This document shows positions 3,506 to 34,308 of a stretch of DNA of 34,767 nt, one piece after another. Each line of letters begins with the position of its first letter. The stretch's first letter is position 1. The notes beneath the pieces are model-generated. The model did not search any database and was not told the DNA's origin. It worked only from the letters and a program-made list of their open reading frames with translations. This DNA comes from Nemertoderma westbladi. Lineage: Eukaryota > Animalia > Xenacoelomorpha. The stretch spans positions 1 through 34,767 of the forward strand of contig JAUCBJ010000991.1 in assembly GCA_032718475.1 (NCBI GenBank). Direction: 5' to 3'. The translations under genes were made by a program, and so were the position numbers.

Positions 3506-6037
3506 TCTGTACAATCTGATCAGGCTAACACGCCTTCTGTTCAATACTGGCCTACTAACAAATAAAACTTGACAGAAATAAGTAAAAATCTCAATAAAAA
3601 ACCAGGGCTGCAGTCCCTGATTAATTATTAAGGCCTACTGGTATATAACAATCAAAATCGAATAATACTGCTGTAGGTACCGGTCCGGATGATCAGGCAG
3701 TCAGGCCTACTGGTTACCGGTCGACCGGTACTTTCGACTTTATTGCTTACTGCAATAAAGAAGCTATATCCTTTAATGTTCGCGCTTTCAGACCTTTGGC
3801 AGTTTAACCCGCCAAATTAGAATGTCTTCTAGATAATAAATCGCTTTTTAGTCTATGACAAGTATTTGATTCACTACACTAGTCGAAACCAATCCGTGCG
3901 CGACCATTCACCCGCTGGATATTCCCGGGAGATTGGGTTCGACGGTTTAATTTTTATTGCTATGTAAGCCTAATGTATTATTCGACTGACAGTATTATAT
4001 AATCTCTGACAATATTATTCACCTTCGGTAATATTAACAGTTCCTTTAGGACGTGGCGCTTTATCTACATAAACAGAGTTATGACTTAAACTACTCGCAA
4101 CGATATGGCTTAATTATAATCCACATATATGGCGCATTCTTTAGGAATTGCTTCTTTAACAGACTCACTCATACACTATGCTGCACAATACTGCACACTA
4201 ATCTGCCAATCTTCACTGATTTTAGTCACATATAAAAGGAACACAGGCTGACTCATGTAGGGTCTATCAAATAACATTAGATTCACTTCAAACCACTTTA
4301 ACATAAGTCACAATCGTTTATCTGTAACCCTTCTCTCTTACCTTCGGTATATCAAGAACATTGGGTTTCGGGGTTGTTTATCGTTATTCCAAATATAATA
4401 ATTCATCAACCATATTATGAAGAACTGACAGCAAATAGCAGTATAAAACAACAAATCAGCACCGGTATGTCAGTGCACATAGGCATGCAGTTCCGTCAGT
4501 CCGTTTGCAGTTAAAGGATATATGCCCTTTATAATTAAACCTACTAGTGTACGACTAAAAAGCAGTACAGCACAAAAAATACTTCCAAGCCGTTCTTTCT
4601 TTGGCTCAAGACTGGATGTAAGCACTGCACATAGGCATTGCGTCATTTCTCGGAAATTCTCTGTACAAGGAGCCACAAAAACGCTCTCATTGGCTGACTG
4701 AGCTGAGAGACGCCGTAGAACAAAGGAAATCAACACGTATGAATGTCAGCTGTTAACCGTAGTCATAGTAACTACTGTTCAAGAGTAGCTATCACTCCTT
4801 TGTGTCACGAATTGCCATAGAATCATAAAAATATACCTTTCACAATACACATACGAAGGAAATAAGTCTTAGATCCTCTAAAAACACCGATACAGTAATA
4901 ATACGGTCTCTTACACTTATTAAATCAACTACAGAGTATTTTAATGTAAAAGATAATAAAAATAACGGGGCAATTCAGCAAAGGCTTTTACATAATCTGA
5001 TGATCTGTGAAGTTGTGCATTTTCACATTCCCACATTCAGATTAATTCAAATTTTAATTCCAAGAAATTTCAAATTTAAATTCTGAGTACCGGTACTGGT
5101 AATATTTTGCATAAATTAAATAAATATATACCTTCTGCTTCTGTTCAGATTTAGTGGTATACCGGTATCAGGAGTTTTGCCTTTCAGCCTATACTGCTAT
5201 ATATACCGGTATATATCTATATATCTGTACGGTATATAACCTAGTTAACTCCAGAACTCATAACTGGTTGATAGACCGAGTTAACCAATTTCAGTACCAG
5301 GATTTGATAGGCTATTATTGTCTATTATAGTGTGTATATTAATATTATTACATAATAATATTAAAGGTAATAGCGTCATACATATACTCAACTCAGACGT
5401 TATTTCGTTATTATATATATAAAGTACCGATATCTGAGTATAGGCACTGACAGACTGTCTAGTATCTACCAATATCTGGTTCGTATCTATATAAATATCA
5501 GTATATAGCTAGCCTATATGTATTTAGTATTTAATACACTGCCCAACAGCCCAAGCTGCCATAGTGCATAGGCCTATTTAATTGTGTATCTAGGTAGGCC
5601 CTACTTCAATATTTACAATATAGACATTATTCACCCTCGTCTTACTGTCTTATGAGTAATTAACTGCTTCAGTCTAGCAGTAAATCCTATTAATTCTGTA
5701 AATATATTTGTGTTTGCCTAATTGTAAGTTACTAGTTTTTGATTGCAGTTCTGCAGTTAAGTTTAAAATATAAACACAGTATCGGTACATACCTGTCTGT
5801 TTCAGCAATTTTAATCTTTTAGGCTATCCACTGACCACGATTGAATACAATCTTTTGTGAAAAAGGGATATCATATTACGCTTCCCTACTGCTCCCAATA
5901 GGTACAGATTGAGTAGGCCTACCCAACATTTATATTCGGTTCAATAAAAGTAGTAGTAAGCCTACTTCTTTTTAAGACATTCAGACCATTTGGCTTTATT
6001 AGGCCTTTGTTGAATATTTCATATATCAATTTTAAAC

Positions 6038-13066: not shown

Positions 13067-13669
13067 ACGTATTTGGATGATGAGGCGTTGCGCACATTGT
13101 TGGCTCAGATCGAATTAGTTTTGAACAACCGACCATTAACACGTATTTCGCAATCTTCTGAATCAGCTGAAGCTCTCACTCCAGCACATTTCCTCTTCTC
13201 TAAACCAGCCATTACGATACCAATATCCGAAATGGAGGATAATGATCTTCATTCCCGACGCACATGGAAAGTTCTTCAACTCCTGACTCAACGATTCTGG
13301 AACAATTGGTTGATTGACTATTTACCTTCTCAACGCCTAAGATCGAAGTGGTTTTGCCAACGACCAAATCTAAATATTGGTGATATCGTCTTAATTCATG
13401 ACCCTGTACGGCCACGGCGGGATTGGGTTACAGCTACTGTCTTAGAACCTAACTACAGTGGCGATGGCTTAGTCAGAAGCGCTAAGTTGAAGACGCAGAA
13501 TGGGAGTATTCTCGAAAGACCGATACAGAAATTATGCCTCCTTGAACAAGACTCAGGGAAGACAGGTATATATGGTCAATTTCAGCCTCTTCAACATAAT
13601 CAGCCGTGGATCCTTAGTAATATTACAACAAATACCCAACGGAAATCTGTTGACAAACATAAACCGTAA
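13067..13669 (+). pseudogene. C-terminal part of element 1 integrase, same frame, separated by a single TAA (13064-13066)
   Basis: EDET*TYLDDEALRTLLAQIELVLNNRPLT...ALTPAHFL...FWNNWLIDYL...GDIVLI...DGLVRSA...RPIQKLCLLE is the typical BEL integrase tail (DUF5641-like). Confidence 0.9.
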
Positions 13670-14014
13670 ACGCCGTGTTAATAACTTTAATGATTCTACT
13701 TATTAACTGAAACTGTATACAGATAACCGATTAAATATAGCAAAGAATGTGTGTATTATAATTCGTTGTATGTTTAGTATGAATAGATCGTATGATGTTC
13801 ATATTTATCTGATCTAAGAAACTAGCGCATGAATTAGAACAAAATATGACATACATAGAGACATATAAACATAATTCCGGTAATAAATTTAAATTTATTT
13901 AAATTTATTGAGATTTGTTGAATTTATAGTTAACGATAAAATTTTTAATTAATGATCAACTTTCAAAAGTAATTCGAGAAAAATTTAATGACTTAATAAA
14001 ATACATTTTAGACC

Positions 14015-14812
14015 GAAGGAGGGTCGGAGTGTTTAAAAAATAAAAATAACATTTATTATAACTAAAACTGTTTGATTAATTAAAAAATAATTAATCTCTG
14101 AAGTTATTCTTCCTCTTGGTTTCAGTTTGGTGAATTTAAGTTATCACCAATTTGATTACTTTTACATTTTAAGAGGTAATCGCCTGATTGGATTGATTTT
14201 GATTATGAAACAGTGTGATACTATATAACATAATAATAATAAAGAAAAACCCAGGCTATCTCTATGGGTTTATTATTATTGGGGGGAATCGAACGGTGGG
14301 TGAGGGACTAATTGCCTTATCGCCAACGTTGGAATACTCCATTTGACTCCCCACGGCAACGGCTATTTACCTAGACTACGGAACCACAGACGTCCTGGGA
14401 CAAAGATGTTCGTTGGACCGATGCTAGACCTATATATACCTAGACGGATCGGATCTGCGTGACGTGATGGGCGACTCGTTATCTATCTTACCGGTGAACC
14501 AAATAATTATCTCAACCTTTCCTTGGAAATTGCCTGCAGACGGGAAAAACACCGGGTGAATGACCTTCAGGAGTCAGTCCCCGAAAACGGAGTCTATTAG
14601 AATTTCAGAAGTTTGATTAATTTGACGTTGAAATGTTTATATTGTTAATACTTGGTTTGTTGATAATTTCTTTGATATGATAACTTTACTTGCCGGTAAT
14701 ATAGTTTTATTCAGAAAGTCCATTATATTAATCATGTTATTATTCTAAGAATATATATTAAGTTATACATATAGTGCAATAGTGTTTACTGGATCAGCAT
14801 ATTCAGCAAACA
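14015..14812 (+). repeat. Polypurine-tract-like motif followed by the probable 3' LTR of element 1 (start 14030; end uncertain)
   Basis: gaaggagggtcggag immediately followed by TGTTT at 14030; TATA-like ctatataa at 14221; candidate inverted end AAACA at 14808-14812. No second copy in the window to confirm. Confidence 0.5.
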
Positions 14813-15807: not shown

Positions 15808-18800
15808 TACTACTACTCTTGCTAGCCTCCGCTGATTGTTGATGATTGTGTTGTCCGTGATCATCACCAAATCACCTTTCTTTAAATCTCTAGTGGTATT
15901 TCTCCACTTGCTCCTCCTATGTAATGTGGGTAGGTATTCCTCGATCCACCTCCTCCAGTACTCTGCGCTTATCGCCATAGCGACTTTCCAACTCTGTCGG
16001 GAGTGTATGTCATCTGGGTCTACACCCCGCATGTCGATGGTCGCCAGCCTTTCCATCAGAAAATGGCTGGGTGTTAGCACGTCTAGTGATTCTGGGTCGT
16101 CATTTTCTGGATACAGCGGTCTGCTATTGATGATACCCTCGCACTTAGCTAGCACCATCCTTAGTATATCCTCTGTCACCATGTGGGTGTTCATCAACTT
16201 CGTCATTAGACGCTTGGAACTACCCACAAGTCTCTCGATGCATCCTGAAGTATGCGGAGCATACGGCGTCCTCCTTTCCCACTTCACCTGTCGTCTCCTC
16301 ATGGCTGCCCTGACTTCCTCTCCCTCCAGGATGTCCAAGGCCTCTGCCAGCTCGTTCTCCGCCCCCACAAAGTTGGTTCCATTATTGGAGTATATTACTG
16401 CGATCGTCCCACCTTTGCGGTCTCTGAACCTCTCTAGGGCATTGATGAATGCCAATGCGGTTGCGTCTTGGGCGAGTTCTATTCCTACCACCCTCGTGTA
16501 GTTACATACGAAGATGATGCTGTAGCGTTTCTCCGTGTGTCGCATCACCTTGATCTTTATCGGCCCGAACATATCTACACCACAGTGCGTGAATGGCGGG
16601 TCGTGCTGTCTCACCCTGCTGGCCGGTAATGGCGCCATCTCCTGTATGGCCCGTTCTTTTCTCGTCCGTCAGCAGGTCTGGCACTGCCCCACTACCGCCT
16701 TCACCTTCTTTCTTAGCTGTGTGATCCAGAAGGTCCTCCGTATCTCCGTGAGGGTCTGGTTGGTGCCCCCGTGCAATATCGACTTGTGGGAGTCCCAAAT
16801 GATCTGGTGGACTATCGGCGATCTGTTTGGGATGATAATGGGTTTTGGTGGGATGATGAGGCTGTTGATATTTAGCACTCTAGAGTTCATTACTAGAATC
16901 CCATCATCATTGAGTTGTGGCGACAGCGTGATGAGTTCGCTGTCCCGACGAAGATGTTGTTATTTGCTGACGCGCTCCACATCATCGCCGTAGTTCTTTC
17001 TCTGTTCGTACCGTATCACGGCCTTAGCCGCTCCCTCCAGATCGATGTTTGTTTTCCTCTTGGCATCCTTGCCAACTCCCTTGAGGAAATCCCCAAAGGC
17101 CCTCCAGTACGCTACCAACTTCTTGGTCTTGTACCAGCTTGAGCTGTAGCTGAGTAGCTTATCCGTCGGGTTGTCGTACGGTTCTTCTAATTTTGGTTGC
17201 ACCCCCCTGATTTCCCTCACCATTTGACTATATATCTCTTCACCTTCTGAGTCTTCTCCCTCTTCCCCTGGTGCTACTTCCTCTGAGCCCGGGTCCACCT
17301 TCTTCATTGGTGGCCAGGCCAACCTATCATTCAGGAAGTGTGGCCCGTGCTGCCACAACACTTCCTTCTTTAAGAAAGTGTGGCATGCCACGCCCCTCGA
17401 TAACAAGTCTGCTGGGTTCTTATCCGTTGGGCAGTAGTGCCACCTTTCCAAGTCTGTCGTCGCCATTATTTTGTCCACCCTATTTGCGATAAATATAGGG
17501 TATCTCGTCCTCTCATTGTGCAGCCAACCAAGCACTACCATGGAGTCCGTCCAGTAGTGTGTTTCCACTATGTTGGGAATAGTGTCCATCAAGTAGGCTG
17601 TGGCCCTTACTCCTAGTCTTGCAGCTGTCAACTCGAGTTTCGGGACTGATGCTGAATCTGGCGGCATCGACTTTGCTTTGCTGAATGCAAGTCTGGGCTT
17701 ATGAGCCCCCTTTCGTTGTACTAGGTAGAGTGCCACTCCGTACGCTTCCAACGATGCATCGGAGAACATGTGTAGATCCAAATTCGTCATGTCCCCATCT
17801 GGGAAATACACGCGTGGCATGCTGTATGTCCCCATCTGTTCTAAACTCTCCGTCCACTTACTCCACTGCTTGCTGATCTCTTCCGGAACCTCTGTATCCC
17901 ATTCGTCCTTTAATTTATATACTTTCTTAAGTATATGTTTCCCCGTGACTAACAGTGGGGATGCTAGGCCTAGGGGATCGTATATCCTTGCTATGTACGA
18001 TACATAGCCCCTCTTTGTGTGGATGTCCGCGCCCTCCTGGCTCAGTTGATACTTGAACTCATCTGTCTCCCGGTTCCACACGATCCCCATGGCCTTCTGC
18101 TGAGACTCCACTCTCTTGTTTGCCATGTCCTGTCACTTGGCTGTTGTATGGTTATCCATGGTCGACTCCGGTCGTCTGCCCTCTATGGCTTTCATAAACC
18201 CCTCTGAGCTGGATTGGAACTTGGTCAGGTTAAACCCGGATCCCTTCAGGATGTCGCGAACCTCGCGCCCTGTATCCAGTAGTTCTTTAACCGTGTTTCC
18301 AGACTCCATTCCATCGTCTACATAGAAGCCGCGTCGAATCATATCGACCGCTTTGGCTCTATACTTCCCTTCTTTCCCCTCTGCTGTATCTCTTACAGCC
18401 ACAGTCATTGTAAATGAGGACGACTTCGCCCCCATGTTCTGCACCACCATCTTGTACATTGGTATTGTCGACGGTTCCTCATCGCCGTTGTACCATAGGA
18501 AGCGCTGGCTGTCACTATCCTCCTCTGTCACCTCTGTCACATGGACTTGGTTGAACATGCCTTCAATATCGCAGGTAAAGGTGTGTCTCCCATTTCTAAA
18601 TCTCAGTAGGACCTCGATTCCCGAGTTATAGATATTTGGGCCCTCCAGCAGATAGTCGTTTAGGCACTTGCCGTTGGTTTTAGCCGATGCGTCAACTACC
18701 ATCCACAATTTACCTTTCTTTGGATCTTGAGCCACGTGAAGTGGCAGGTAGTATGTCCTGTCCGTGTCCGGTTCGTCGACCGGCAATTCCACGGCCCATC

Positions 18801-20121
18801 CTTTCTCGAGGTACTTCCTTATCGTCTTGTGGATGTACTCATCCTTCTCGGGGCTCTGCTCTATCGACTCCTTCACACTTTGTATAGCTTGTTTATCCTC
18901 TACCAAGGTTCCGACCCCGGTCTCCTTTAGTCCCTCAAAGTCCTGTCTGAGCAGTCTCCTGAGCTGCTCCTCCACTCCTTCATCTTCCATCTCCATCATA
19001 GTTCCCGCAAACATGCACCCTGATGTCTCCGACATCCTAAACGGAATCTTGGTTTTAATTGGGCCGCTTAGCGTCCACCCGAATGGTGTTAAAATTGCCA
19101 TCGGGTCACGCTGCCTGTCTTCGCCGAAGACCGTCTGCATTCTCTCGTGGGCCGTCGGGCAGTCCATTCCCACTATGATGGATACTTTCCTAATGTCCAC
19201 CTCTGGTATCGAGAAATCGATGCTGTCCAGGAATCTGTATTGCTCGACCTCGATGTTGGTTGGTCGCCTGGCGTTGATATTGATCGATTCTATTGCCTGG
19301 ATGGGGTCGATGGTCGTCCAATAGTCGCATCCCGGTGCTATCGCAGCTATCTCGCACCGTCCCGTCCTCATCTCTAGGACATCATCTTTGCTGGAGATGG
19401 TTGTTACCGCCATCCTACTTGGCCTCGTCTTTAGTCCTATTTCTTCAGCCACCCAATTCTCCATCAATGTGAAGGCTGCTCCACTGTCGACCAGCATCAG
19501 CGTGGTTACTGAACGACCGCCTTCTCCGATCACCCTCACTGGTACTACCCCGAGTAGTACCGTTCCTCTTTTCTTCGCCCCTACGGTGCTTGTTGCCATT
19601 GTCTGTCCTTTGCCTTGACCGAACTTAATTGGTGTTTCTTTGCACTGATCAGCTTTGTGTCTGCCCGCCACACATCGATGACAGATTCCACTCTTCCTTG
19701 CATATTCTACCTGATCTTGTTTGGGCAACGCTTGCCAATATTTGCAGTTCATGGTCTGATGAAGTGCGTTCGAATGCAATTGGCATTTGTTGTTTGGATT
19801 ATAGCCATCCCTATACAGTGCGCTGCGTATCGCACTTACGTTCGTACCTAGTTCCCTACTGTTCTTATTTTTTGGGTTCGGCCTACTGGGCGTGTTGGGG
19901 TTGTGTTTGTTTGTGTTGTTATTTTGCCCCTGTCCACTCCATGATATGGCCCTACCCCCGGCTACATGTGGACTAGCAGTCCCCTGCGTCGCCGCGTATG
20001 GCAGCGATTGTCTAAGCTTTGGCAATGCGTTTGCCATGATGTGTTCTGGTTTTTGCCTGTTATATTCAGTCTTTGGCCCCTTCCCCAGACTATCCTCGCT
20101 ATAGACTGGGTCCGTGATCAA
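15808..20121 (-). pseudogene. Element 2 Cys-His boxes, protease, RT, RNase H and integrase, broken by stops and frameshifts
   Basis: CQLHSNALHQTMNC, CHRCVAGRHKADQC, LVDSGA, CDIEGMF, YVDDG, LHMFSDAS, PKLEL, YWTDS, H(KSIL)HGG...CQTC, GVDMFGP, SNNGTNF (catalytic D changed to N), IERLV, across ORFs 18133-20121, 16960-18126, 16669-16890 and 15769-16638. Confidence 0.92.
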
Positions 20122-22437
20122 CTCGTGCTTCGTAGTTGAGGAAGTTCGACATTTCCTCTAGGCCCGGTTCCGCACCCTTCTTCTCCCGGGTGGAGAAGGC
20201 GATCTTCCTCCATTTGTTGCGCAGCCAGATCGGCAGTGCCTGCGCTATCGTGGTGATATTATTAGATGCGTTGAGTTCGTATGGCGCGTCTAGTGTTTTC
20301 AGCACGATTAACGCCTTCTCGACTTTGTTCGCAAACATCTTTATGCTAACGGGGTTATCCTGTAGGCCACCCGATGTTATACCCCTCAGGGTCTGCCGGA
20401 TGATCTTGGCCGGGTGCCCGTATTCCCTGTCTAGGGCCCGCCATGCAGTCGTGAAGCCACCCTCGATGCCCTGATACTGCCTCACGATGTCGTACGCTGG
20501 GCCTCCTGTATATACCTGTAGATATTTTAGGCACTCTGCCTGCGTCAGGTTCTTAGTTAATATCTCGTTGCTGTACATGCGCCGAAATTGCAGGTATTCT
20601 TCCGGCCTACTTCCGTCGAATTTAAATGGCTCTACGGGTGGTAGCTCGATTCTGGTCTTGAGCTGCATCGATTAGTGTAGCCATTCCCATCGCCTGTGCT
20701 TCCAATGGGTTCGAAGGATGCTGTACAGATTCTCCCGTTGGGTGCGGCCCGCCCGTCCGGCCTGTTGCCTTCCGTTGCGTCGGATATACCATTGGGGGTA
20801 ACGGCCCCCTCCATATTTCCGTGTCGCAAGATCTGTTCTCGTCCAGGGGGTTCGATGTTCTTATTTCTGTTTGAGTGTATTGTTGATATTGTAATGGGGG
20901 AATGTCACCCTGCCCCCCCCCCCCCCCCCCCCCCCACCGGTGGTATGTTTGGTACTGGGGTTGATGTTAATATATTGGGGCCCATACACCTATCCGCAAT
21001 AACTCTCCCCTCCCCTGGATATATGTTATGTCCCTGCATGTTATAGTCATACTGCTGTGCTGGTACCGGTATAGGCCTATCCACTTCTGGCCTACCTACC
21101 GGTATATACTCCGCGACTTCCGGGTCTAATCCGTCGTCCGCGCTACCCTATCGCCTACACTATCTCTCCCAGCATGGCCTATAGTATGTGCAGTAAGGCC
21201 TACAGTATGTCCTGCAGTCTGTATGTGTCCCTCTGGACCGAAGTTTAACCTTCTCGAATAATCCAAGAAGTCCTCCCCGCGACTACCGTACCCTCGATCG
21301 GCAGCTATATCCCGTCGGGAAGTTTCTCTTCGATCCCCTCTCCTATTCTCGTCCTCGTACCGGTACGCCCTGTACCCCTCTCTCGGCGTATAGTACACCT
21401 CGCCAGGTTGCGTCTCTCCGGGGCGATGGCAATCTCCCGGAGTTCGACCCCACTGACTCTCCAACTCCATCTCTACTACCGACGGCTCGCTATCCGTCCT
21501 CGCTCTCCGGTCGCTCGTAACGACGCTTCTTCTACTCTCTTCTCTTCTTCTCTCTTCAGTGTAGCGTCCCCGCTCGTGAGATCTCTCGTCGACCTCCCGG
21601 TTAAACTCCACTGTTCTTCTTCCCTCTTCTGACTGGGCTCGACGTCTCATCGCTCGCCCGCTCGCGACGCCAACCTCCCTCTCTCTAGCCGGTCGCACGC
21701 CGCTGGGGATATTCGTAATCCCCCTACTATTCTCCGTCGCCGGGTGCTGCGGTTCACCTAATTCGCCCTGCGCATTATCCGCCGACGCCTGTGGGACACT
21801 CTCTGCCCCCCCCCCCTCTCGCCGCTAATCTCTCGTTGTGGGGCTCCTGTAGCCCCCCCCCCCCCCCCCCCCCCCACTCGCCACCTATCTACTTCACTAT
21901 CTCTCACTTCGCCTCTACGCCCCTCTCTAGTCGACGCACTATCTCTACTGCGGCTGGGTCTATTCACCCCCGCCTCTCCCTCTATCACTGCGTGGCCTGG
22001 CAGGCTCCCGTTGGGGTCTCTCACCCCAGCTACTCCCTGCGTATTAACTATGTGGCCTTCCAGGCCCCTGCTGGTCGGACCACCTACATCTGCCACGTTT
22101 ATATTAATAGCACCATTATTAACATTATTAACAAAATTATTCGGATTATTTGAATTATTCTGTACCGAGTTTGGATTATTATTTAAATTATTTTGTATAT
22201 TTAGATTAGAATCGGGAATATTTTGCTCGTTTGAATTAAAATTATTATTTAGATTATTTTGCGTATTTAAATTTAAATTATTCGAATTACTTTGTGTATT
22301 TGAATTATTTTCTATATTTGGGTTTAGATTATTATTTAAATTATTTGGATTATTATGTGCATTTAAATTAGGAATACTCGGATTTAAATTATTATTATCG
22401 GGCAAAATATTATTTCCTGGAATAAAAGTTTGATTAG
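20099..22437 (-). pseudogene. Element 2 gag, downstream part: Asn-rich and Arg/Glu-rich low-complexity region, then gag core
   Basis: ORFs 21758-22405 (NNLNNN repeats), 21126-21698 and 20099-20668 (LPPVEPFKFDG..EEYLQFRRMY...LKYL...AWRALDREYG, DUF1759-like); some frameshifts lie at poly-C runs. Confidence 0.85.
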
Positions 22438-22442
22438 GGTTG
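22438..22442. repeat. Left target-site duplication GGTTG of element 3
   Basis: GGTTG directly precedes TGTGAG at 22443; the same 5-mer follows TCACA at 31961-31965. Confidence 0.92.
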
Positions 22443-23023
22443 TGTGAGGGGATTCAATTCCGCTCCACCAACCCCATAAAGTTGGGAAGTGGCGTTTTAA
22501 GCAATATTGGGGAGTACGAGGTTGATTAGAATCAACCTCATATCACCCCCAATAAAGGGGGACAACACACAGCCCCAAAGAGCCACACACAAAAGAGGTT
22601 ATAGGTCAAACCTCTTGGAGAGGGAAAGTGACAGCAGTGGGGGGAAACACTCCCACAGAGGTGGGAGCCGAGAATTAGGTTATTGGCCAATAGGGGACAA
22701 GGAAAATGCATCCGCTAAGTAACAAAGCCACAAGTAGAGTAGAGGTGAATATATTTTACCAGTTAGTGTTTGTATCCTATTCAGTTATCTCAGTCACGTA
22801 GGACAGTACGGTGACACTTTAGTACGGTCACCGCCGTCACCAACATTTATATTATCAATTTACCGGTACAACATCCAAGTTATCTCATGCTATCATATTC
22901 TATATTGTATACTATATTTCGACCCTATTAATAATACTGGAACGACAACAACAAACTCTTTTCACAACCTTGCGGCGATGCGTAACTAAAATCAACTGGT
23001 CGGGATCCTCTGATCCCGTCACA
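22443..23023 (+). repeat. 5' LTR of element 3 (581 bp)
   Basis: Direct repeat of 31426-31960; TGTGA/TCACA inverted ends; TATA-like at ~22750 and initiator TCAGTT at 22781. Confidence 0.95.
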
Positions 23024-23037
23024 GTACTAAAGTCACC
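23024..23037 (+). other. Non-tRNA primer-binding site candidate GTACTAAAGT(CACC), complementary to R-region loop 22816-22825
   Basis: Abuts the LTR terminal CA, lacks TGG, and is the exact reverse complement of ACTTTAGTAC in the LTR hairpin loop. Confidence 0.75.
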
Positions 23038-23100
23038 TATTACGAAGCATAGACAACTGCCAGAACTGTGACTGCCAGCCACCAGGAAGAAAGTTAAAGA

Positions 23101-24090
23101 ATGAGCGAAGAAGCCCGAAATCTAGAGGGAGAGACGACACCACCATGGACCCCAGACGATACCAACGAAACGATCCGTGAGGCCGCGACGCGACGGTATC
23201 GACCCGTAATGCCAAACTCGCCGGAAAGGGACGATCCGGTAGCCCAAACGGGGGGCGGCCATCTACCAGGACGAGAGGACGAGTCGACGCACGACGGCGG
23301 ACGACGTACCGATGTCGCCGGCCCGCCACAGGCCGAGGGCGACGGACAGCCCACCGGAACGGTGACAGTGGGGCCGCCGGTACGACGCCGAACCAGGAGG
23401 GGAGGAGAGGTCGGCGACGAGGACGTCGGAACCAGTGACCGGCTCCAACGAGCCTACAATGCAACAAAGAAACAACTAAAGGAGGCTAGAGAAGGAGTAA
23501 AATAGACCAACGGAATTTGAACCGGCGACTAGGTGAGTCGAATAAACACTTTAGCTACCTAGTTCGCTTCGGGCAGGGAGAAATAGCCAGTGAGAGAGCG
23601 AGGGGGGTCGCCACCGAACTATTTGAACTGTGGCGGTCCGGGATAATGGAGCCCCAAGTGGTGTACATAGGGCCGTATTTAGTGGATGCTAGGGGAATTA
23701 AGTTAGTGGGTTGGGCAGACCCGCACGAGGGCGAATCCGAGATTAACCCCGAGGATTCAGTCTCGTCGGTTAGCGAGAACCCCAGAAAGTTGGGGAAAGT
23801 TAGTAGGACAGAGAGGCGACGTCTGGCGTCTGGCGTGTCAGTTGGACATGGTGGCGCTAGACCAGAAAGAGTTAGAGAGGCAGTTGGAAGAGGGAACTGC
23901 GTTTTTGGAAAGAGAGAGAGAACTGGCGAGAGAGATGGTGGCGCTAGACCAGAAAGAGTTAGAGAGGCAGTTGGAAGAGGGAACTGCGTTTTTGGAAAGA
24001 GAGAGAGAACTGGCGAGAGAGAATAAAGAGAGGGCTGAGAGGGTCGCGAGAAACTTTAGAGAGTGTGAGGAGATAGAAATAAGGGAAGGA
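23101..24090 (+). pseudogene. Element 3 gag N-terminus (stops, frameshifts, truncated by an internal deletion)
   Basis: Homologous to 33422-32493 (RLQRAYNATKK, GVATELFELWRSG, PYLVDARGIKLVGWADPHEGE, LDQKELERQL). Confidence 0.9.
23848..24021 (+). repeat. Perfect 87-bp tandem duplication in the gag coiled-coil
   Basis: atggtggcgctagaccagaaag...ctggcgagagag starts at 23848 and again at 23935. Confidence 0.95.
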
Positions 24091-27000
24091 AAGGAGCCCC
24101 GAGAAGAATGAGTACATTCATAGAACAATAAGAAAGTATGTCGAGAAAGGATGGGCCGTGGAGTTGCCGGTCGACGAACCAAACACAGATAGGACCTATT
24201 ACCTGCCACTTCACGTGGCTCTAGACCCGAAGAAAGGTAAACTGCAGATGGTAGTTGAAGCATCGGCTAAGACCAACGGCAAATGCCTAAATGATTATCT
24301 GCTGGATGGTCCTAATATCTATAACTCAGGAATCGAGGTCCTGCTTAGATTCAGAAATGGGAGGCACGCCTTCACTTGCGACATTGAAGGCATGTTTAAC
24401 CAAGTCCGTGTGACGGAGGAGGATAGTGACAGCCAGCGCTTCCTATGGTACAGCGGCGACGAGGAACCGTCAACAATACCGATGTACAAGATGGTGGTAC
24501 AGAATATGGGTGCCAAGTCGTCCTCATTTACGACGACTGTGGCTGTGAGGGATACAGTAGAGGGGAAAGAGGAGAAATATAGCGCCAAAGCCGTCGATAT
24601 GATTCGACGCGGCTTCTATGTAGATGAGGGAATGGAGTCTGGAAACACGGTTAAAGAACTACTGGATACAGGGCGCGAGGTTCGCAACATCCTGAAGGGA
24701 TCCGGGTTTAACCTGACCAAGTTCCAATCCAGCTCAGAAGAGTTTATGAAAGCCATGGAGGACAGGAGGCCAGAGTCGACGATGGATAATCCCACGACAG
24801 TCAAGGGACAGGACATGGCGAACAAAAGGGTAGAGTCCCAGCAGAAGGCACTAGGGATCGTGTGGAACCAAGAGACAGACGAGTTCAAGTACCAGCTGAG
24901 CCAAGAGGGCGCGGACATCCACACAAAGAGGGGCTATGTATTGTACATAGCAAGGATATACGATCCCCTAGGCCTAGCATCCCCACTGTTAGTAACGGGG
25001 AAACAGATACTTAAGAAAGTATATAAATTAAAGGACGAATGGGATACAGAGGTCCCGGAAGAGATCAGCACTCAGCAGTGGAGTAAGTGGACGGAGAGTT
25101 TAGAACAGATGGGGACATACAGCATGCCACACGTGTATTTCCCGGATGGGGACATGACGAATCTGGATCTACACATGTTCTCCGATGCATCGTTGGAAGC
25201 GTACAGAGCGGCACTCTACCTAGTACAACGAGAGGGGGCTCATAAGCCCAGACTTGCATTCAGCAAAGCAAAGTCGATGCCGCCAGATTCAGCATCGGTC
25301 CCGAAACTCGAGTTGACAGCTGCTAGATTAGGAGTAAGGGCCACAGCCTACCTGATGGATGCTATTCCCAACATAGTGGAAACACACTACTGGACGGACT
25401 CCATGGTAGTGCTTGGTTGGCTTGGAAAGGTGGCACTACTGCCCAACGGACGAGAACCCAGCGGACTTGTTATCGAGGGGCGTGACATGCCACACTTTCT
25501 TGAAGAAGGAAGTATTGTGGCAGCATGGGCCACAATTCCTGAACGATAAGGTGGCCTGGCCACCGATGAAGAAGGTGGACCCGGGCTTAGAGGAAGTAAC
25601 ACTGGAGGAAGAGGGATGAGATTCGGAAGGTGAAGAGATATATAGTCAGATGGCGAGGGAAATGAGGGAGGTGCAACCAAAATCAGAAGAACCATGCGAT
25701 AACCCGACGGATAAACTCCTCAGCTACAGCTCAAGCTGGTACAAGACCAAGAAGTTGGTAGCGTACTGGATAGCCTTCGGGGATTTCCTCAAGGGAATTG
25801 GCAAAGACACCAAGAGGAAACTAAACATCGATCTGGAGGGAGCGGCCAAGGCCGTGATTCGCTACGAACAGAGAAAGAACTACGGCGACGAAGTGGAGCG
25901 CGTCGGGGTAAACAACAACATCTTCGACGGGACAGTGAGCTCATCACACTGTCGCCACAACTCAATGACGGCGGGATATTAGTAATGAACTCCAGAGTGC
26001 TAAATAACAACAGCCTCATTATCCCACCAAAACCCATCATCATCCCAAATAGATCGCCGATAGTCCACCAGATCATTTGGGACTCCCACAAGTCGATATT
26101 GCACGGGGGCACCAACCGGACCCTCACAGAGATACGGAGGACCTTCTGGATCACACAACTGAGAAAGAAGGTGAAGGCGGTAGTGGGACAGTGCCAGACC
26201 TGCCGACGGACAAGGAAGGAGCGGGCCGGACAGGAGATGGCGCCATTACCAGCCAGCAGGGTGAGACAGCACGACCCGCCATTCACGCACTGCGGTGTAG
26301 ATATGTTAGGCCGATAAAGATCAGGGTGATGCGGCACACGGAGAAGCGCTAACGCATTATCTTCATATGTAACAACATACTAGTGTTCTCCGTGTGTCAT
26401 CAGGCGGTAGGAATAGAACTCGCCCAAGACGCAACCGCATTGGCATTCATCAATGCCCTAGAGAGGTTCAGAGACCGCAAAGGTGGGACGATCGCAGTAA
26501 TATACTCCAATAATGGAACCAACTTTGTGGGGGTGGAGAACAAGCTGGCAGAGGCCTTGGACATCCTGGAAGGGGAGGAAGTCAGGGCAGCCATGAGAAG
26601 ACGACAGGTGAAGTGGGAGAGGAGGACGCCGTATGCTCCGCATACTCTAGGATGCGTCAAGAGACTCGTGGGTAGTTCCAAGCGTCTGATGACGAAGTTG
26701 ATGAACAACCACATGGTGACAGAAGATTTACTAAGGACGGTGCTAGCTAAGTGCGAGGGAATCATTAATAGCAGACCGCTATACCCAGAAAATGATGACC
26801 CAGAATCATTAGATGTGCTGACACCCAGTCACTTTCTAATGGAGAGCCCGGCGACCATCGGCATGTGGGGTGGTGTAGACCCAGACGACATACACTCCCG
26901 ACAGAGTTGGAAAGTCGCTAAGGCGATAAGCGCGGAGTACTGGAGGAGGTGGGTTGAGGAATATCTACCCACACTTCATAGGAGGAGTAAGTGGAGAAAT

Positions 27001-27193
27001 GCCACCAGAGAGTTAAAGAAGGGTGATTTGGTGATCGTCACAGATGACACCATCATCAACAATCAGTGGAGTTGTGGGCACTTACTCCGGTGAGGACGGA
27101 AGAGTCCGAATAGGTGGCAAGATAGGAGCGAAAGATAGGAAGACCCACAGGAGGGCTGTAGGAAAGTGCTGCGTACTAGAGGGCGCACCTTAG
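24091..27193 (+). pseudogene. Element 3 RT, RNase H and integrase (decayed)
   Basis: Closely similar inverted copy of 18855-15808; RT motif mutated to YVDEG; several frameshifts; ends GEDGRVR...RRAVGKCCVLEGAP* at 27193. Confidence 0.92.
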
Positions 27194-27360
27194 TGTTTAG
27201 TCGTCCAAGTGTTGGACTGAGGGGGGTGGGATTGAGGGTGAGACGCCCTTCCCACACAAAATATAAAAAATAATAATAAAAATAAAATAATAAGAAAGAG
27301 AGTAAGAGAAAGGAAAGTAATAGTACACAGTAGGTACGTAGTAAGTAAGTAGGCAGATAG

Positions 27361-27765
27361 AAGTTAGTAAGAGTAGTAAGAGGGTACGTAGTACCGTTAA
27401 TAAGAGTTAGTGGAGTTAGTTAGTAAGAGGGTACGTAGTACCGTTATAAAGAGTTAGTGGAGTTAGTTAGTAAGAGGGTACGTAGTACCGTTAGTAAGAG
27501 TTAGTGGAGTTAGTTAGTAAGAGGGTACATAGCACCGTTAGTAAGAGTTAGAGGAGTTAGTTAGTAAGAGGGTACGTAGTACTGTTAGTAGAAGAGTTAG
27601 TAAGAGGGTACGTGTAGTACCGTTAGTAGAGGAGTTAGTAAGAGGGTATGTGTAGTACCGTTAGTAGTAAGAGTTAGTGGTAGGAGGGTATGTAGTATAT
27701 AGCAAGAGTTAGTAAGAGTTAGTAGAAATTAGTTAGAAAGTTAGCAGAGTTAGTAGCGAGTAGTG
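27361..27765 (+). repeat. Minisatellite between pol and ORF3: 47-bp unit decaying to 36-42 bp, about 8 copies
   Basis: gagggtacgtagtaccgtta-like cores near 27380, 27427, 27474, 27521, 27568, 27604, 27642 and 27684, separated by gagttagt subrepeats. Confidence 0.9.
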
Positions 27766-28116
27766 AGAGGGGGGCATGTGGGTACAGCAGGACAGATCGT
27801 GTAGGCTACACGAGACATACTACTGTACTGCACAGCCCGTAGAGTAGGCCAGAATATGGATTAAAAGAAGAAATAATCCATTAATAGATACTGATAGCAC
27901 AGTTGTAGGATTAAAAATAAATATTAAAATCAAAATTAGACAAATTATGGTAACAGTAGGCAAGATATTCCAGAACATAATTAAAGTAACTGACAAAATT
28001 AGGGAATTAGGCAATAACCTAGCATTCAGAGAGAGATAGGCCATTATCGGACCGTACAGACCATCCTAACTACATCACTCACTTATATTGTGCCTTGGCA
28101 AGGCCCCACCTTATAG

Positions 28117-30681
28117 GTGAGCAATCGGGAGAGTTCGAAATAGCGGAGAAACTTGTTTGAAAGAGAAAGGCAGAGTTGGGAGAAAAGGAGATACTGGTGG
28201 ATTTCACCGAAAGGCATCCGGAAGAGAAGACGAGGGGATACTATGAGCGGTTAGAGAAGGGTCACAAGGAGCGAGCGCTGCAGGACCATTTCAGGGAGGT
28301 GCACTAACAGCGGCTGATCAGGACCTATGGGACACCGTCGCTAGACAATGCGATCTTCGAGCATTTCCACTATGTGGTAAAGGGAGACGAGGCGAAGTTC
28401 AGGATACCGAAGTATCCAAAGGAACCACCGAGAAAGGACTGGAAGAGGTTCGTAGAGTCCATCAGCAGTGGAGGATACATGGTTCTAGACAATGAGGGGA
28501 CCATGGAAGACGAGGAAGGTTCGAGAAGAGGAGCGACGGGGTCGGCCAGAACCATACTCCTGCATTTGGCCGCGCCAAATGGGGATATATTCCTGTTCAA
28601 TCTGGGAACGTATGGGAAGAAGAACGGGCCGAAGTTAAACCGGTTGCCAAAGGCGGTGCAGAGCCTAGTAAGAGAGAAGTTGACGATAAAGGTGGGATCG
28701 GCGATCCGCGACGATGCGGAGAGGATCATCGGTCCGGAGACCCCCAACCTCCTGGACATGCAAACGGTCTACATGGCTATGACAGCGCCAGACAGGTTGG
28801 GACTAGTAGAGAACGCGGACCATTGTGGAGCGGTGGCGATGGGCCAGCTAATGGGGCTGGTATGCCACAAGCCAATGGACTGGGGTAAATTCAGGGAGGA
28901 GTACGGAGCGGAGTTGGCGAACTCGCTGAAGTGGCGAGCGAGACCGGGGAAGCAAGAGGTGTATCAATTCCGGAGAGGAGATTCAGGAGGTATATCAGAA
29001 GCGATATATCCTGCAGGAGGACAGAATAATGATAGGTTTGCTAAACCTATTCATGACCGTGGTTATCAAGAGAGAACCAACGGCATTTCTGCTATCGGGA
29101 TCACCCCTGAACTACAGAAGAGCCTTCAAAGTGGCTTTCGAGGGTCTGGTAGACCACCCGGGTCTGAAGGGGGGGTCGGTATATTATAACTGCCAATATC
29201 TAGTAGACGGGGAGGTGGATACGCCATATCAGAGGTGGGAGCAGCTAGAGGCGGATAGACGAGAGGTGAAGCGATTGGAAGAAATTGCTAGACGAGAAAG
29301 GAGAGAGGCAGAAGAAAGGGAGGCGGAAACTAGAGGAGAGGGATACGGGTTCGAGGAACAGGCGGCCTTAGACAATCTACACTGGACATCAGGGAGTTCA
29401 GGCGAGTCTCTAGGGCGAGAATTGGGGTGGACGGTAGGATCACCGAAACAGTCGACATCGGGGTTGCAGACGACGCCCATACCAGCAGGCGCCGAGGGCA
29501 ATTTCGCGGAGAGAAGGCCATGGGAACTGGAAGGATGGAGAGTCACGGGCGAGAGCCAAGGTGGGAAGGGACACAGTGGATCCACCAGGATACCGGGTTT
29601 GGAGCCACTCCCAGAGGAGGACGAGGATGACAATGAGTTCGGAGAGATGCCGCCCATCGGGAGAATCGGCCACTCGGAAACGGACTGGGTTGGCGGGAGA
29701 GTGGTGACGGCCAGCGGGGCGAGAGCCTTCTGGGATAGACCTGGCAAGCGGGCCTGGGTGCATGAGGAGCCGGTGATGGATTTCGCGGGGAGCACCATCG
29801 GGTTGGGCGAGCAACCGGGAACGGCACCACGGGTAGTATTCAGAGAGACAATGCCCAGGCGAGGCGAGGAGATAGACGTGGACAGGGTCGCTAACGTCCA
29901 GAAGTTCGCTTACAAGCGACTCCATAGACAGAGGAGATCGCTTGGGACGAAAGACGACATAGGGCAAGAGGCATTGGTACTCGGCTGCGATTATTGCGGG
30001 AGGCAAACTCACCAGGAAAGGAGCTGCTTGTACCGATTCCAGAAGGGGACGAGTTACCTCTACTGCCGCGAGTTGAGTCATAGGATGGGGGCGTGTCCAC
30101 GGTTGCACAACCGGTGTTCTAAGTGCAACTTCCGGGGGCACTATGGATGCCAGTGCAACTGGATGGATGACGAGGAGAAGTTTAGGATCTTCGAGGAGTG
30201 GGCCGATGCCGGCGCCATGACGCGGCAGCGGATGAAGGCCCAGGAATTCCGGTGGGGCTTCTTTAACATCAACCAGGAGGCCCACCTGGAAATCATTAAA
30301 CGGAGACTTCCGTTTACTTGTCAGGAAGTGTCAATGGCGGCGTCGTATGCCGGAGTGATAAATACGCAGAGGTATTTAGACAGGTGGACGCCACAGAATC
30401 GGGGAGATTTCAGAGATTTCTTGGTGGAGCATGTGCCTCGGGCTATAAAGGTGATCCTATGGGACGCCACTTGGGGGAAGCAACAGTGCCATTTGGAGGG
30501 GCTAATAACACCAGCACCCAAGGAGTCCACGACGGGAATCAGCAGAGAAGTGATGGCAAGGATCAGGAACCTTAAAGGGGATAAGAACAAGGGAGCGGCA
30601 ACGACCAGGAAGCGACTGAGGGAGGAGGACGACAGAGGGAAGGAACTGAGATGGTTCCCAAAGTCAGGAGGAGCGAACTAG
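28117..30681 (+). pseudogene. ORF3 of element 3 (~850 codons reconstructed): DEDDy/WRN-like 3'-5' exonuclease domain, acidic linker and three CCHC zinc knuckles
   Basis: ExoI-like YMVLDNEG; LLHLAAPNGDIFLF; LPKAVQSLVREKLTIKVGSAIRDDAERI (ExoII-like); NLLDMQ; after a +1 frameshift (28930-28980) QKRYILQED (ExoIII-like). Knuckles CDYCGRQTHQERSC, (Y)LYCRELSHRMGAC and CSKCNFRGHYGCQC. Frame extends upstream through TGA 28158 and TAA 28305. Confidence 0.75.
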
Positions 30682-31417
30682 AACTTAGAGGGGGAAATGT
30701 GGAGATGCCTGGAAGGCACCACACGTGAAGTAATACGAACTCCTAAGTGCAAATTTAATTAAAAGTGCAATTAGTATGTACGTATGAAATAATCATTAGT
30801 ATATAGTCATATAGCAAATATAAAGTAAGTACTATAGTCATGCAACCTTTTTTCCAATTAGCTACTGGGACTGGGGGGCCAATTGACTGTGACAGGAGGA
30901 TGGGAGACTAGACGTAGCACTACACACTTGACGCTTCTTAAGTGCGACGGCACGGAAGGGGAGGGTGAGGCTCGCCAGGAGCAAATAGGAATCGAGTATA
31001 GAACGCGTGGAGAGAAGGCGAGTGCAATTCAAGTGTGGGGGGGGGAGGAGTAAGAGGCAGATTGAGGGACAGGTGGTCCGGAAGTTAGAGTGAAGGTAGA
31101 AGAGAAGTAGAGGAGAATCAGGGTGAGAGTGGAGAAGTTAGAGTCAGTCAGAGCGGAGTTAGAGTGGAGAGAATAGTGGGGAGATAAAATTGTGTGAGAG
31201 AAATCTACAATTTTCGCGACCCGAGACGCCAGATGTCTTGGTGCAACATAGGTGAAGTTGCACCAAGAGAGGGTAGCAATATCATACCCATAGGGAGCAG
31301 CCTGGAAAGCCGGCTCCAAGAAAGACAACTCCACCTCACACCCGATAGTAGATCGGGTTCCAGCAGAATTGAAGCACACTCGTTGGTGATGGTATCTTCT
31401 CACCGGGAAGATAGCAT

Positions 31418-31425
31418 GGGGGGAG
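31418..31425 (+). other. Polypurine tract of element 3
   Basis: GGGGGGAG directly before the 3' LTR TGTGAG. Confidence 0.8.
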
Positions 31426-31960
31426 TGTGAGCGGATTCAATTCAGCTCCACCAACCCCATAAAGTTGGGAAGTGGCGTTTTAAGCAATATTGGGGAGTAC
31501 GAGGTTGATTACAATCAACCTCGTATCACCCCCAATAAAGGGGGACAACACACGGCCCCAAAGAGCCACACACAAAAGAGGTTATAGGTCAAACCTCTTG
31601 GAGAGGGAAAGTGACAGCAGCGGGAGGGAAACACTCCCACAGAGGTGGGAGCTGAGAATTAAGTAGAGGTAGAGTAGAGTTAAGTAGAGTAGAGGTGAAT
31701 ATATATTACCGGTTAGTGTTTGTATCCTATTCAGTTATCTCAGTACGGTGACACTTTAGTACCATCACCGCCGTCACCAACATTTATATTATCAATTTAC
31801 CGGTACAACATCCAAGTTATATCATGCTATCATATTCTATATTGTATACTATATTTCGACCCTATTAATAATACTGGAACGACAACAACAAACTCTTTTC
31901 ACAACCGTGCGGCAATGCGTAACTAAAATCAACCGGTCGGGATCCTCCGATCCCGTCACA
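31426..31960 (+). repeat. 3' LTR of element 3 (535 bp)
   Basis: Direct repeat of 22443-23023 with roughly 16 substitutions by eye plus two larger indels; TATATA at 31700 and TCAGTT at 31731. Confidence 0.95.
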
Positions 31961-31965
31961 GGTTG
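31961..31965. repeat. Right target-site duplication GGTTG of element 3
   Basis: Matches 22438-22442. Confidence 0.92.
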
Positions 31966-33422
31966 TCTACTACGGTACTATTAATGTTAACGTCTTCTAA
32001 CGTATTGTTATTACCCCACCCCCCCCCCCCCCCCCCCCACCCCCCGCCCGTACGGTTACACCAGTCTAGGGTCTGTTGTCCGGTCCCTGTAAGTGGGGTA
32101 TTAACAAACGTTTCCATAACCTCTGGCCCCTCGTAAACACTACCCAAGCCAGCCTCACACACTGTTAGTCCCAACTGCGCCAGTTCTAGTCTGCGCTTCT
32201 GTTTGGCCTGATATTGCATAAGCCCCCTCAACCGAGAATGCATATCATCCCGCATGCGCTTTCCCGCTCGCTCTCTCTCTCTCTCTCTATCTTCTCGCAA
32301 ACTCTGGTTCGCTAACTCTGTTTCTCTTGCCATCCGCTCTCTACGCTCGCTCTCTACTCTCGCCTCCCGCTCTCTATATTCATTTGTTTCTCTCTCCACC
32401 CTCGCTGCCTCTCTCGCTTCTCGTTTTATGCGCTCGTTCTCCACTCTCGTTTCTCGCTCTTTACGTTCGTCTGCCTCTCTCACTTCTTGCTCTCAACAAT
32501 TTCTCGCTACCCTCTCAGCCCTATCTCTACACTCCCTCGCTAACTCTCTCTCTTTCTCTAGCAATGCAGTTCCCTCATCCAACTGCCTCTCTAATTCTTT
32601 CTGGTCTAGCGCCACTATGTCTAATTGACACGCCAGATCTATCTCTATCTCTATCCCATTATAGGATGTAGCGGACTTATCGGTCGCGACGGACTCCCGT
32701 CGCCTCTCTGTCCTACCAATTTTCCCCCGCTTTCTGGGGTTCTCGCTGACCGACGAGACCGAATCCTCGGGGTTAACCTCGGGTTCGCCCTCGTGCGGAT
32801 CCGCCCAACCCACTAACTTAATTCCCCTAGCATCCACTAAATATGGCCCTACGTACACCGCTTCAGGCTCCATAACCCCGGATCGCCACAGTTCGAATAG
32901 TTCGGTGGCGACCCCCCTCGCTCTCTCACTCCCCAGTTCTCCCTGCCCGAAACGGACTAGATATCTGAAATGTTTATTCGACTCACCTAGCCGCTGGCTC
33001 AACTTCCCCTGGTTTACCTTCTCTCCCTCTTTGGCTTCCCTCAATAGTTTCTTGGTGGCGTTGTAGGCCCGTTGAAGCCGATAGCTGGTCCCGATGTCCT
33101 CTTCGCCGACATCTCCTCCTCCTCTCCTGGTTCGGCGTCGTACCGACGGCCCCACCGTCGCCGTTCCAGTGGGCCGTCCGTCGCCCTTGGCCTGTGGCTG
33201 GCCGGCGACTTCGGTACTTCGACTGGCATCGTGTGTCGACTCGTCCCTTCCTTGTGGTAGATGGCCGCCCTCCGCTTGGGCTGCCGGATCGTCTCTCGTC
33301 AGCGAATCCGGCGTCGTGGGTCGATACTGTCGTGTCGCGGCCTCGTGGATCGTTTGGTTGGTGTCGTCCGAGGTCCGCGGCGGTGTCCTCTCTGCCTCTG
33401 ATAGTTGGGATCCTGTGCTCAT
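31961..33422 (-). pseudogene. Element 2 gag N-terminus (one in-frame TGA at 32493-32495), interrupted by element 3
   Basis: ORFs 32493-33422 and 31956-32483 share a frame; Glu/Arg coiled-coil; joins 22437 in frame as ...STVVDN|PNQTFIPGNNILPDNNN... Confidence 0.88.
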
Positions 33423-33459
33423 CTTTGTTCTTTAGGCAGTCACAGTTTTGTGGTAGCTG

Positions 33460-33471
33460 GGTATCTTACAC
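33460..33471 (-). other. Non-tRNA primer-binding site candidate GTGTAAGAT(ACC), complementary to the R-region loop of the element 2 LTR
   Basis: Plus-strand ATCTTACAC 33463-33471 is the reverse complement of GTGTAAGAT 33675-33683, the loop of stem CGGTGAC/GTCACCG. Confidence 0.75.
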
Positions 33472-34055
33472 TGTGACGGGATCAAGGGATCCCAACCAGT
33501 TTGTCAAACTACGCGTCACTGTGGTATTGGAATAAAAGAGTTTGTTGTTATCTCTTCGACGCTTGGTAGTTAATATTGATAAATGGATTGATAATATATG
33601 TAATAGCACATTTGATATATCGACAATAGCAGTATACTGGTAGGTAGGATATACAATATGTAATGACGGTGACGGTGTAAGATGTCACCGGTCTGCACTC
33701 AAACTAATGACTGGAACAACTGAATTGGTATCTCAATACATTGATAATATATGTAATCATTCCTACATTACTGTGGCCTTTGTCCAGTGGATGCTTTTCC
33801 CCGCTCCTATTGGTTGATAACCTACTTCACGCCTCTCACCTCTGTGGCAGTGCTTCCCCCCCTTGTTGCTATTTGCCCTCTCGAGGAGGTGAGACCTCTA
33901 ACCTCCCTTTGTGTGGCTTTTGGGGTTTGTGTTATCCCCGTTATTGGGTGTGATACGAGATTGGTTGTTATCAATCTCGTATCTCCAATATTGCTGAAAA
34001 AGGCGCCACTTCCCAACTTTATGAGGGTAATGAGGTGGAATTGAATCCGCTCACA
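33472..34055 (-). repeat. 5' LTR of element 2 (584 bp), a diverged relative of the element 3 LTRs
   Basis: Minus strand begins TGTGAGCGGATTCAATTCC and ends GATCCCGTCACA, like the element 3 LTRs; TATA, TCAGTT and the hairpins are conserved. Confidence 0.92.
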
Positions 34056-34308
34056 TTTTTTATATTAGTGAATGTTCTAGAACCTTAGTTTTTTTTTTAT
34101 GGTATATAGCTATTATTTTTTACTAGCTAGTAATTTTTGGAAATTATTTTGGTCATTAATATATTCTTCAACAGTTTAACCTGAAATATCATGGACTTTC
34201 ACATTTTTTATAATTTCTAAAAATACTAGCTAGCAAAAAACACTACCGGTAGCTATCATAAAGAACATATCTACTAATGTTCTAGAACTTTCACCAATAA
34301 CAAAAAAA
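34056..34308. repeat. AT-rich imperfect foldback (arms ~34056-34148 and ~34209-34308), possible MITE remnant
   Basis: Left arm attagtgaatgttctagaac...ttttttactagctagta..gaaattat matches the reverse complement of the right arm (attggtgaaagttctagaac...ttttttgctagctagta..gaaattat). Confidence 0.7.

Follow-up and report, generated by a model that had tools for sequence, protein, structure and literature searches.

What does the long reading frame in the env position of a BEL/Pao retrotransposon of Nemertoderma westbladi encode, and what would its product do for the element? The window analysed here is the whole stretch from position 1 to 34,767 (forward strand) of contig JAUCBJ010000991.1 (GCA_032718475.1), which holds several retrotransposons with long terminal repeats (LTRs), and the frame, called ORF3 (third open reading frame), belongs to a plus-strand BEL/Pao element within it (Table 1). 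A sequence-only reading of this DNA had placed ORF3 between pol and the polypurine tract (PPT), inside the LTRs and the target-site duplication (TSD), as a decayed frame of around 850 codons with a DEDDy-type 3'-5' exonuclease and three CCHC knuckles, and had proposed for it a role in primer processing, in proofreading or against small-RNA silencing. The placement held, since the frame is enclosed by an LTR pair with 507 of 535 aligned letters identical, by the PPT and by a GGTTG duplication on both sides.

ORF3 has 855 codons, two stops and one frame break, so its length and decay are as described before, and it is coding-like in a codon model trained on the pol and gag stretches of this element and of a relative in the window, with ORF3 excluded from the training. 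Frame A is open from 28308 to 29189 and frame B from 28930 to 30681; frame A is the best and positive from around 28110, frame B is the best in 17 of 19 scoring windows from 28920 to 30690, and the switch from A to B is best placed at 28962-28974. A short imperfect repeat around the break codes QEVYQ twice. In agreement with the previous claim, no transmembrane-grade segment was detected in ORF3, the best 19-residue hydropathy being 1.27 (a signal-peptide predictor was not run), in such a way that it has no transmembrane anchor of the kind that marks an env glycoprotein.

The N-terminal part was compared with exonuclease families. In the ESM Atlas, the top match (0.95) was a 'Werner syndrome-like exonuclease' cluster with PF01612 on 38% of its members, and 25 of 30 matches belonged to PF01612 sets (194 of 256 features common, recognition 2607); according to the tool's own note, a score of 0.95 is attained by one in 100 shuffled proteins. 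An independent profile of 34 DEDDy domains, mostly bacterial and WRN/EXD2-like, ranked the ORF3 frame first among 596 six-frame pieces of the window (expectation value, E, 0.015), and with the ORF3 read-through, carrying X at the breaks, the pairwise E was 1.8e-5, a score reached by none of 2000 shuffles. The motifs previously noticed were all found, namely VLDNEG at 28482-28499 (D at 28488, E at 28494), LLHLA at 28557, FLF at 28590, LPKAV at 28644, KVG at 28689, DD at 28710/28713 and QKRYILQED at 28996-29022; they include the D-x-E of ExoI (28488-28496) and the K-x-G...D of ExoII (28689-28715). In a MAFFT alignment of 22 rows, the columns of D27 and E29 of ExoI, of K94, of W175 and of D191 are invariant and that of D102 is nearly so, at around 20% identity to the DEDDy relatives; the conserved Trp codon is at 28932. 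The order of the motifs, compared by eye, equals that which Fig. S1 of PMC3706591 shows for WRN, MUT-7, RRP6 and the exonucleases of Dada. An alignment-guided AlphaFold model reached a predicted local distance difference test (pLDDT) score of 61, with values exceeding 80 over the blocks of ExoI and ExoII; its fold matches (RNase D, Nibbler and EXD2, E 7e-6 to 2e-4, and Egalitarian) are circular because the model was seeded with the DEDDy family, and they speak for compatibility alone. These data support that the N-terminal part of ORF3 is, by profile and conserved acids, a remote homolog of WRN/EXD2-type DEDDy exonucleases, so the resemblance to the WRN/EXD2/Mut-7 group stands. ORF3 is very probably a real accessory gene derived from this class, and in intact copies the exonuclease is predicted to be catalytically active, an expectation that we hold slightly above even.

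The presence of ORF3 in other copies was studied in contigs of four of six DNA runs, obtained from one organism and at most three samples. All 30 bins were covered in the four runs, and the depth showed no interruption between pol and the LTR, ORF3 included; in run X1 the summed contig depths, which are not copy numbers, were 10,417-32,385 in ORF3 bins and 19,557-69,529 in pol bins. One X5 contig spans the frame break (28809-29215) with a single gap, and no skip from pol to the PPT was found among 15 of 189 joints. ORF3 is therefore a gene of the family and not a one-off insertion. Eleven single-letter differences were recorded in ORF3 (among 40 of 2333 rows, leaving out four at 28981-28984). 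All five at third positions, which lie in the exonuclease part, are synonymous, and three of them are among the four clearly split sites, that is, sites with the other letter at less than 90% of X1 depth; at five of the six non-synonymous sites, at least 96% of X1 depth differs from the window copy. In this small sample, the pattern fits selection at the family level together with decay of the window copy.

The three CX2CX4HX4C-type knuckles were also confirmed, the second with Tyr as its first ligand. At 30056, within this Tyr codon, all depth shows another letter in the four runs, so the Tyr is private to the window copy. When the frame-B protein was shuffled 20000 times, two perfect motifs never appeared, and in the Atlas the knuckle part matched zf-CCHC/HEXBP-like and DUF8363 clusters (best 0.87, range 0.78-0.87), which we take as a lead only. 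Knuckles of the CX2CX4HX4C type point to single-stranded RNA, and we infer that those of ORF3 may bind RNA. An origin as a duplicated BEL Gag box was considered and rejected, since the three knuckles share the CX2CX4HX4C spacing, which differs from the Gag pattern in PMC554778, and frame B matched none of 120 Pao polyproteins at E below 0.06.

How the frame could be expressed was addressed through its predicted splice sites. Frame A has no ATG upstream of the Met directly ahead of ExoI. Between the 5' LTR and ORF3, the donor ending at 23532 is the sole AG|GTRAG site, and the relative keeps it, at 32987; the acceptor ending at 28116 is the joint best by pyrimidine count of 90 YAG sites in 27190-28490, has a CTRAY branch-like site upstream and coincides with the start of the coding signal. 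Both are in phase 1, in gag and in frame A respectively, and a spliced, env-style message (23532 to 28117) that fuses around 145 Gag residues to ORF3 is therefore predicted.

The priming of the element provides a possible context for such a protein. No TGG start of a tRNA-type primer-binding site (PBS) is present behind the 5' LTR (a tRNA library was not searched), and the 18-nt PBS for tRNA-Arg or tRNA-Gly that the profile of the International Committee on Taxonomy of Viruses (ICTV) gives for BEL/Pao was not found there. The PBS position pairs instead with a 10-mer of the element's own LTR, its exact reverse complement, the pairing ending exactly at the LTR boundary. In the relative, 33471-33463 pairs with 33683-33675 over 9 nt with letters that differ at both places, and the offsets within the LTR are almost the same, 373 in the ORF3 element and 372 in the relative. 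Cross-pairing between both elements reaches at most 4 nt, so the differences are compensatory (covariation), and self-pairing was matched in 17 of 20000 shuffles for the ORF3 element and in 88 of 20000 for the relative. Within the LTR, the pairing site is predicted to fall in a hairpin loop (z -1.8) and is downstream of what we take to be TATA- and Inr-like motifs. Two relatives thus share a PBS complementary to their own LTR up to its boundary, as in Tf1-type elements, and we consider the site a candidate for self-priming in place of a tRNA PBS. The primer processing proposed earlier gains a concrete context, because a self-pairing primer site replaces the tRNA PBS; proofreading found no support in this analysis.

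Our leading explanation, held tentatively and somewhat short of even confidence, is that ORF3 encodes a spliced, Gag-N-fused protein of DEDDy-type and CCHC parts that most likely trims the element's own RNA at its 3' ends. The spliced message would give an ORF3 protein fused to the Gag N-terminus, and the knuckles would guide this Gag-tethered trimmer, holding the LTR-derived RNA on the primer site. Such an RNA would need a paired 3'-OH at the PBS position, and a 3'-5' trimmer could cut its 3' tail back and stall at the duplex, leaving that paired 3'-OH, in such a way that reverse transcription would then start exactly at the LTR boundary. That the substrate is the element's own RNA is plausible, if less than probable; that it is specifically the self-primer is quite unlikely, and a BEL/Pao lineage free of tRNA priming with its own primer-maturation enzyme, in the form of the spliced Gag-N/exonuclease/zinc-knuckle protein, seems equally improbable.

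Several results weigh against this explanation, and the first group concerns the homology itself. The hhalign probability was just 31% over 65 columns (E 5e-4), the same columns as in the profile match; Pfam gave no family for the exonuclease part at E up to 10, so that the PF01612 cut-off was not reached, and the NCBIfam and PHROGs scans of ORF3 gave no family match. Among 1.84 billion proteins, phmmer found one match, discarded as spurious since it is a tetratricopeptide repeat (TPR) protein; the word search found 0 of 1451 candidates and the PDB sequence searches none. With tblastn, two chance rows at E 5 were obtained in plasmids and none in phages. The unaided single-sequence AlphaFold model failed (pLDDT 35, with no meaningful fold match), and the guided one is weak over ExoIII (pLDDT below 50 at residues 175-201).

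ExoIII itself is a further difficulty. Its atypical form, described earlier as YxxxED, was borne out in that Y-x3-D is absent, and is refined here by a second candidate: F-x3-D at 28968-28982, before the break, whose residues stand at the canonical 12 and 16 from the conserved Trp, in addition to Y-x3-E/Y-x4-D at 29005-29022, after the break, in Q-K-R-Y-x3-E-D. Neither F-x3-D nor Y-x3-E gives the expected Y-x3-D. The depth at 28981-28984 is around 1/10 to 1/5 of that at 28946 (1,469 vs 13,019 in X1, 1,764 vs 13,905 in X2, and 2,121 vs 10,198 in X3), few contigs cover these positions and most depth there departs from the window sequence, therefore copies vary in this stretch. As for the rest, two splice sites would agree in phase by chance one time in three, the exonuclease part is deleted at one X1 joint (27993 to 29253), no contig listed joins ORF3 to pol in another copy, and the evidence for selection comes down to the 11 sites described above. 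Finally, the primer of Tf1 is made by RNase H alone (PMC7175516), and therefore self-priming requires no extra nuclease.

The non-canonical ExoIII of both candidates would suit a protein that has lost most or all of its catalysis and acts as an RNA-binding adaptor, whose DEDD fold and knuckles bind, localise or package the element RNA. Egalitarian and EXD1 use the nuclease fold in this way, without relying on catalysis, and Egalitarian-RNA complexes are among the fold matches of the circular model. Inactive DEDD derivatives in the piRNA pathway are noted, too, in PMC5408684. Against such an adaptor, the D and E of ExoI and the D of ExoII are kept in a very divergent domain of around 20% identity, which suggests that metal binding still matters, and we regard this explanation as rather unlikely. 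Counter-silencing, in which the nuclease would trim or degrade host piRNA, small interfering RNA (siRNA) or their precursors like a misdirected Mut-7/Nibbler, is unlikely as well: the family is abundant in the organism and the best fold matches, again of the circular model, are to Nibbler, EXD2 and RNase D, but no link to small RNAs emerged in this analysis and the fusion to Gag-N would point to the element's own particle. In PMC5408684 a role in silencing is raised, with a possible link to the higher copy number of Juno1/2, whereas Vesta2 and Vesta5, which bear DEDDy domains, are low-copy.

For a helper acting on DNA, which would proofread or trim cDNA ends like WRN-type domains, the closest Atlas clusters are indeed WRN-like. 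Nevertheless, ORF3 is separate and unfused to reverse transcriptase (RT) or integrase, none of 120 Pao polyproteins has such a domain, and the knuckles suggest single-stranded RNA, so we consider this role very improbable, even if processing of DNA 3' ends has been proposed for Dada exonucleases (PMC3706591). Scarcely credible is a neutral passenger or nested element, that is, an ORF3 brought by another mobile unit and with no role for the BEL element. Purine runs followed by TGT, PPT-like, do flank ORF3 at 27765 and 30687, the linkage of ORF3 to pol was seen in the window copy alone, and one deleted form exists; however, the segments after both motifs have no mutual similarity by blastn, the depth is continuous, no pol-to-PPT skip appeared among 15 of 189 joints, and the phase of the donor in gag agrees with that of the ORF3 acceptor. 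Since no pair of LTRs was found around ORF3, a nested LTR element at that place was rejected as well.

Several known systems share features with ORF3 or with its element. A DEDDy-exonuclease ORF3 is known in the bdelloid rotifer elements Juno and Vesta, and is common to Athena/Terminon (Rodriguez et al. 2017, PMC5408684). As in Juno and Vesta, the ORF3 described here is a non-env, enzymatic frame of the DEDDy class between pol and the 3' LTR, with no transmembrane segment; it lies downstream of pol like the members of the rotifer pool, the domains being likened by description and not by rotifer sequence. The rotifer ORF3s are typically expressed from spliced messages, with their activity untested (PMC5408684), while splicing is a prediction here. 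The host element is BEL/Pao, unlike in the rotifers, the third acid is D where the rotifer motif is DEED, and the frame has 855 codons with three CX2CX4HX4C knuckles, whereas PMC5408684 gives a Cys-His-Cys motif in Vesta2/5 only.

With the PF01612 enzymes (WRN, EXD2, Mut-7, Nibbler, Egalitarian) ORF3 shares the D-x-E of ExoI, the L-x-L...F-L-F strands, the LP...L...KVG...D of ExoII and a DL strand, and with MUT-7, RRP6 and RNase D a conserved Trp, in W-x-x-R-P; it differs from them in being below Pfam detection at around 20% identity, with insertions, an ExoIII other than Y-x3-D and an element-borne location. The Dada transposons of Laccaria and Ectocarpus also encode a WRN-like DEDDy domain, but inside the DDE transposase of a DNA transposon and with the four acids kept, unlike ORF3 (PMC3706591). 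A third coding region after BEL/Pao pol is present in Tas, Cer7/Cer13 and Atlas virus (PMC8742986, PMC9094657, PMC554778), where it is a membrane glycoprotein, of whose features ORF3 has none. Regarding priming, the PBS of Tf1/sushi, Tcn1 and TAR likewise pairs with the own LTR over around 10 nt, with no tRNA (PMC6317226, PMC7175516), although these are Ty3/gypsy or Ty1/copia elements and the ORF3 element is BEL/Pao; the Tf1 primer is the first 11 bases of its own RNA, cut by RNase H (PMC7175516).

The ICTV profile of Belpaoviridae lists env as the one third gene. In the literature searched, with Repbase/GyDB entries and survey supplements lying outside the search, no BEL/Pao exonuclease and no BEL/Pao self-priming were found, and the word 'exonuclease' has 0 occurrences in PMC3118150, PMC13524379 and PMC554778. 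DEDDy cargo is thus known in rotifer elements, and a BEL/Pao case was not found reported. The pol of the element is divergent, with PF05380 in 120 of 120 homologs listed for pol and a top identity of 36% among those listed. An accessory domain resembling RNase D has reportedly been described in Cer7, which, if so, would be a BEL precedent.

Table 1. Positions, in the window, of the ORF3 element and its relative.
Feature	Positions	Strand	Remarks
TSD, left copy	22438..22442		GGTTG
5' LTR	22443..23023	+	TGT...ACA, 581 nt
LTR-internal 10-mer	22816..22825	+	exact reverse complement of the PBS position; 3' LTR copy 31753-31762
PBS position	23024..23033	+	pairs with own LTR
gag, N-terminal part	23101..24063	+	broken; internal deletion joins gag to RT at ~24094
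Predicted splice donor	23532..23538	+	AG|GTGAGT, exon ends at 23532, gag phase 1
BEL/Pao pol remnant	24083..27193	+	decayed; RT, RNase H (Peptidase_A17), integrase H2C2 finger, DUF5641
Purine-rich spacer	27330..27760	+	47-nt tandem repeats, between pol and ORF3
Predicted splice acceptor	28092..28116	+	intron ends at 28116, frame A phase 1
ORF3	28117..30681	+	855 codons; stops 28158 and 28305, frame break near 28950-28990
Predicted exonuclease domain	28410..29070	+	DEDDy-type (WRN/EXD2-like), 3'-5'
Linker	29070..29985	+	~300 codons, charged then Gly/Ser/Glu-rich, no family match
Three CX2CX4HX4C knuckles	29986..30156	+	29986-30027, 30055-30096, 30115-30156
C-terminal part	30157..30681	+	175 codons, no family match
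PPT	31418..31425	+	GGGGGGAG
3' LTR	31426..31960	+	535 nt, 94.8% identical to 5' LTR
TSD, right copy	31961..31965		GGTTG
Related BEL/Pao element	15827..34055	-	5' LTR 34055-33472; truncated in integrase

The assignment to BEL/Pao is given by Peptidase_A17 (E 5e-37), H2C2 and DUF5641, by the domain order RT-RNase H-integrase, and by the TG...CA LTRs with a short TSD and a PPT. The internal deletion took the protease, part of the RT and the greater part of gag, including the region of the triple Cys-His box of Gag, for which the relative gives one pattern match; an 87-nt tandem duplication (99%) at 23845-24018, at the end of the gag remnant, adjoins this deletion. The RT motif at 24614-24625 reads YVDE in the ORF3 element and YVDD in the relative, so the pol of this copy is dead as well. 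The ORF3 element sits in the gag of the opposite-strand relative, whose pol is around 90% identical; X2 and X3 contigs join 22437 to 31961 and represent the insertion-free form. Because the relative is cut off in integrase, it is uninformative on an ORF3 of its own.

Further details of these elements were noted. The length of the 47-nt tandem repeat in the spacer differs among contigs, and three internal purine runs (27219-27232, 27765-27779 and 30687-30700), similar to a PPT and LTR start, bracket the spacer and ORF3; two of them are followed by TGT, and all three may be relics of former 3' ends. In the three LTRs (23005-23023, 31942-31960 and 33472-33490), the terminal ACA comes right after a small inverted repeat, GGGATC...GATCCC, and the 3' untranslated region has a short inverted repeat at 31236-31263 (TTGGTGCAAC...GTTGCACCAA). 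An imperfect palindrome (69%) at 34056-34306, possibly a miniature inverted-repeat transposable element (MITE), adjoins the 5' LTR of the relative. Another BEL/Pao element, whose open gag-pol frame has 2350 codons, occupies 6014-14035. It has no ORF3 and shows a PPT-like run around 14014-14029; a 5' LTR to match it is absent from the window. On the minus strand, 2-1648 is a 549-codon open frame that runs off the window; it has an Ala/Glu/Lys-rich, coiled-coil-like repeat and no Pfam match.

What nuclease cargo does in LTR retrotransposons has been a question ever since the rotifer report, in which no activity was shown. ORF3 would extend this cargo to BEL/Pao with a different architecture, in which three knuckles accompany a WRN/EXD2-type domain; the family is abundant enough to be analysed for selection, and the element's own primer is a specific candidate substrate. 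If the primer explanation is true, the element would use a priming route distinct both from tRNA priming and from the RNase H cut of Tf1; if the protein acts on small RNAs instead, it would be an element-encoded counter-silencing enzyme.

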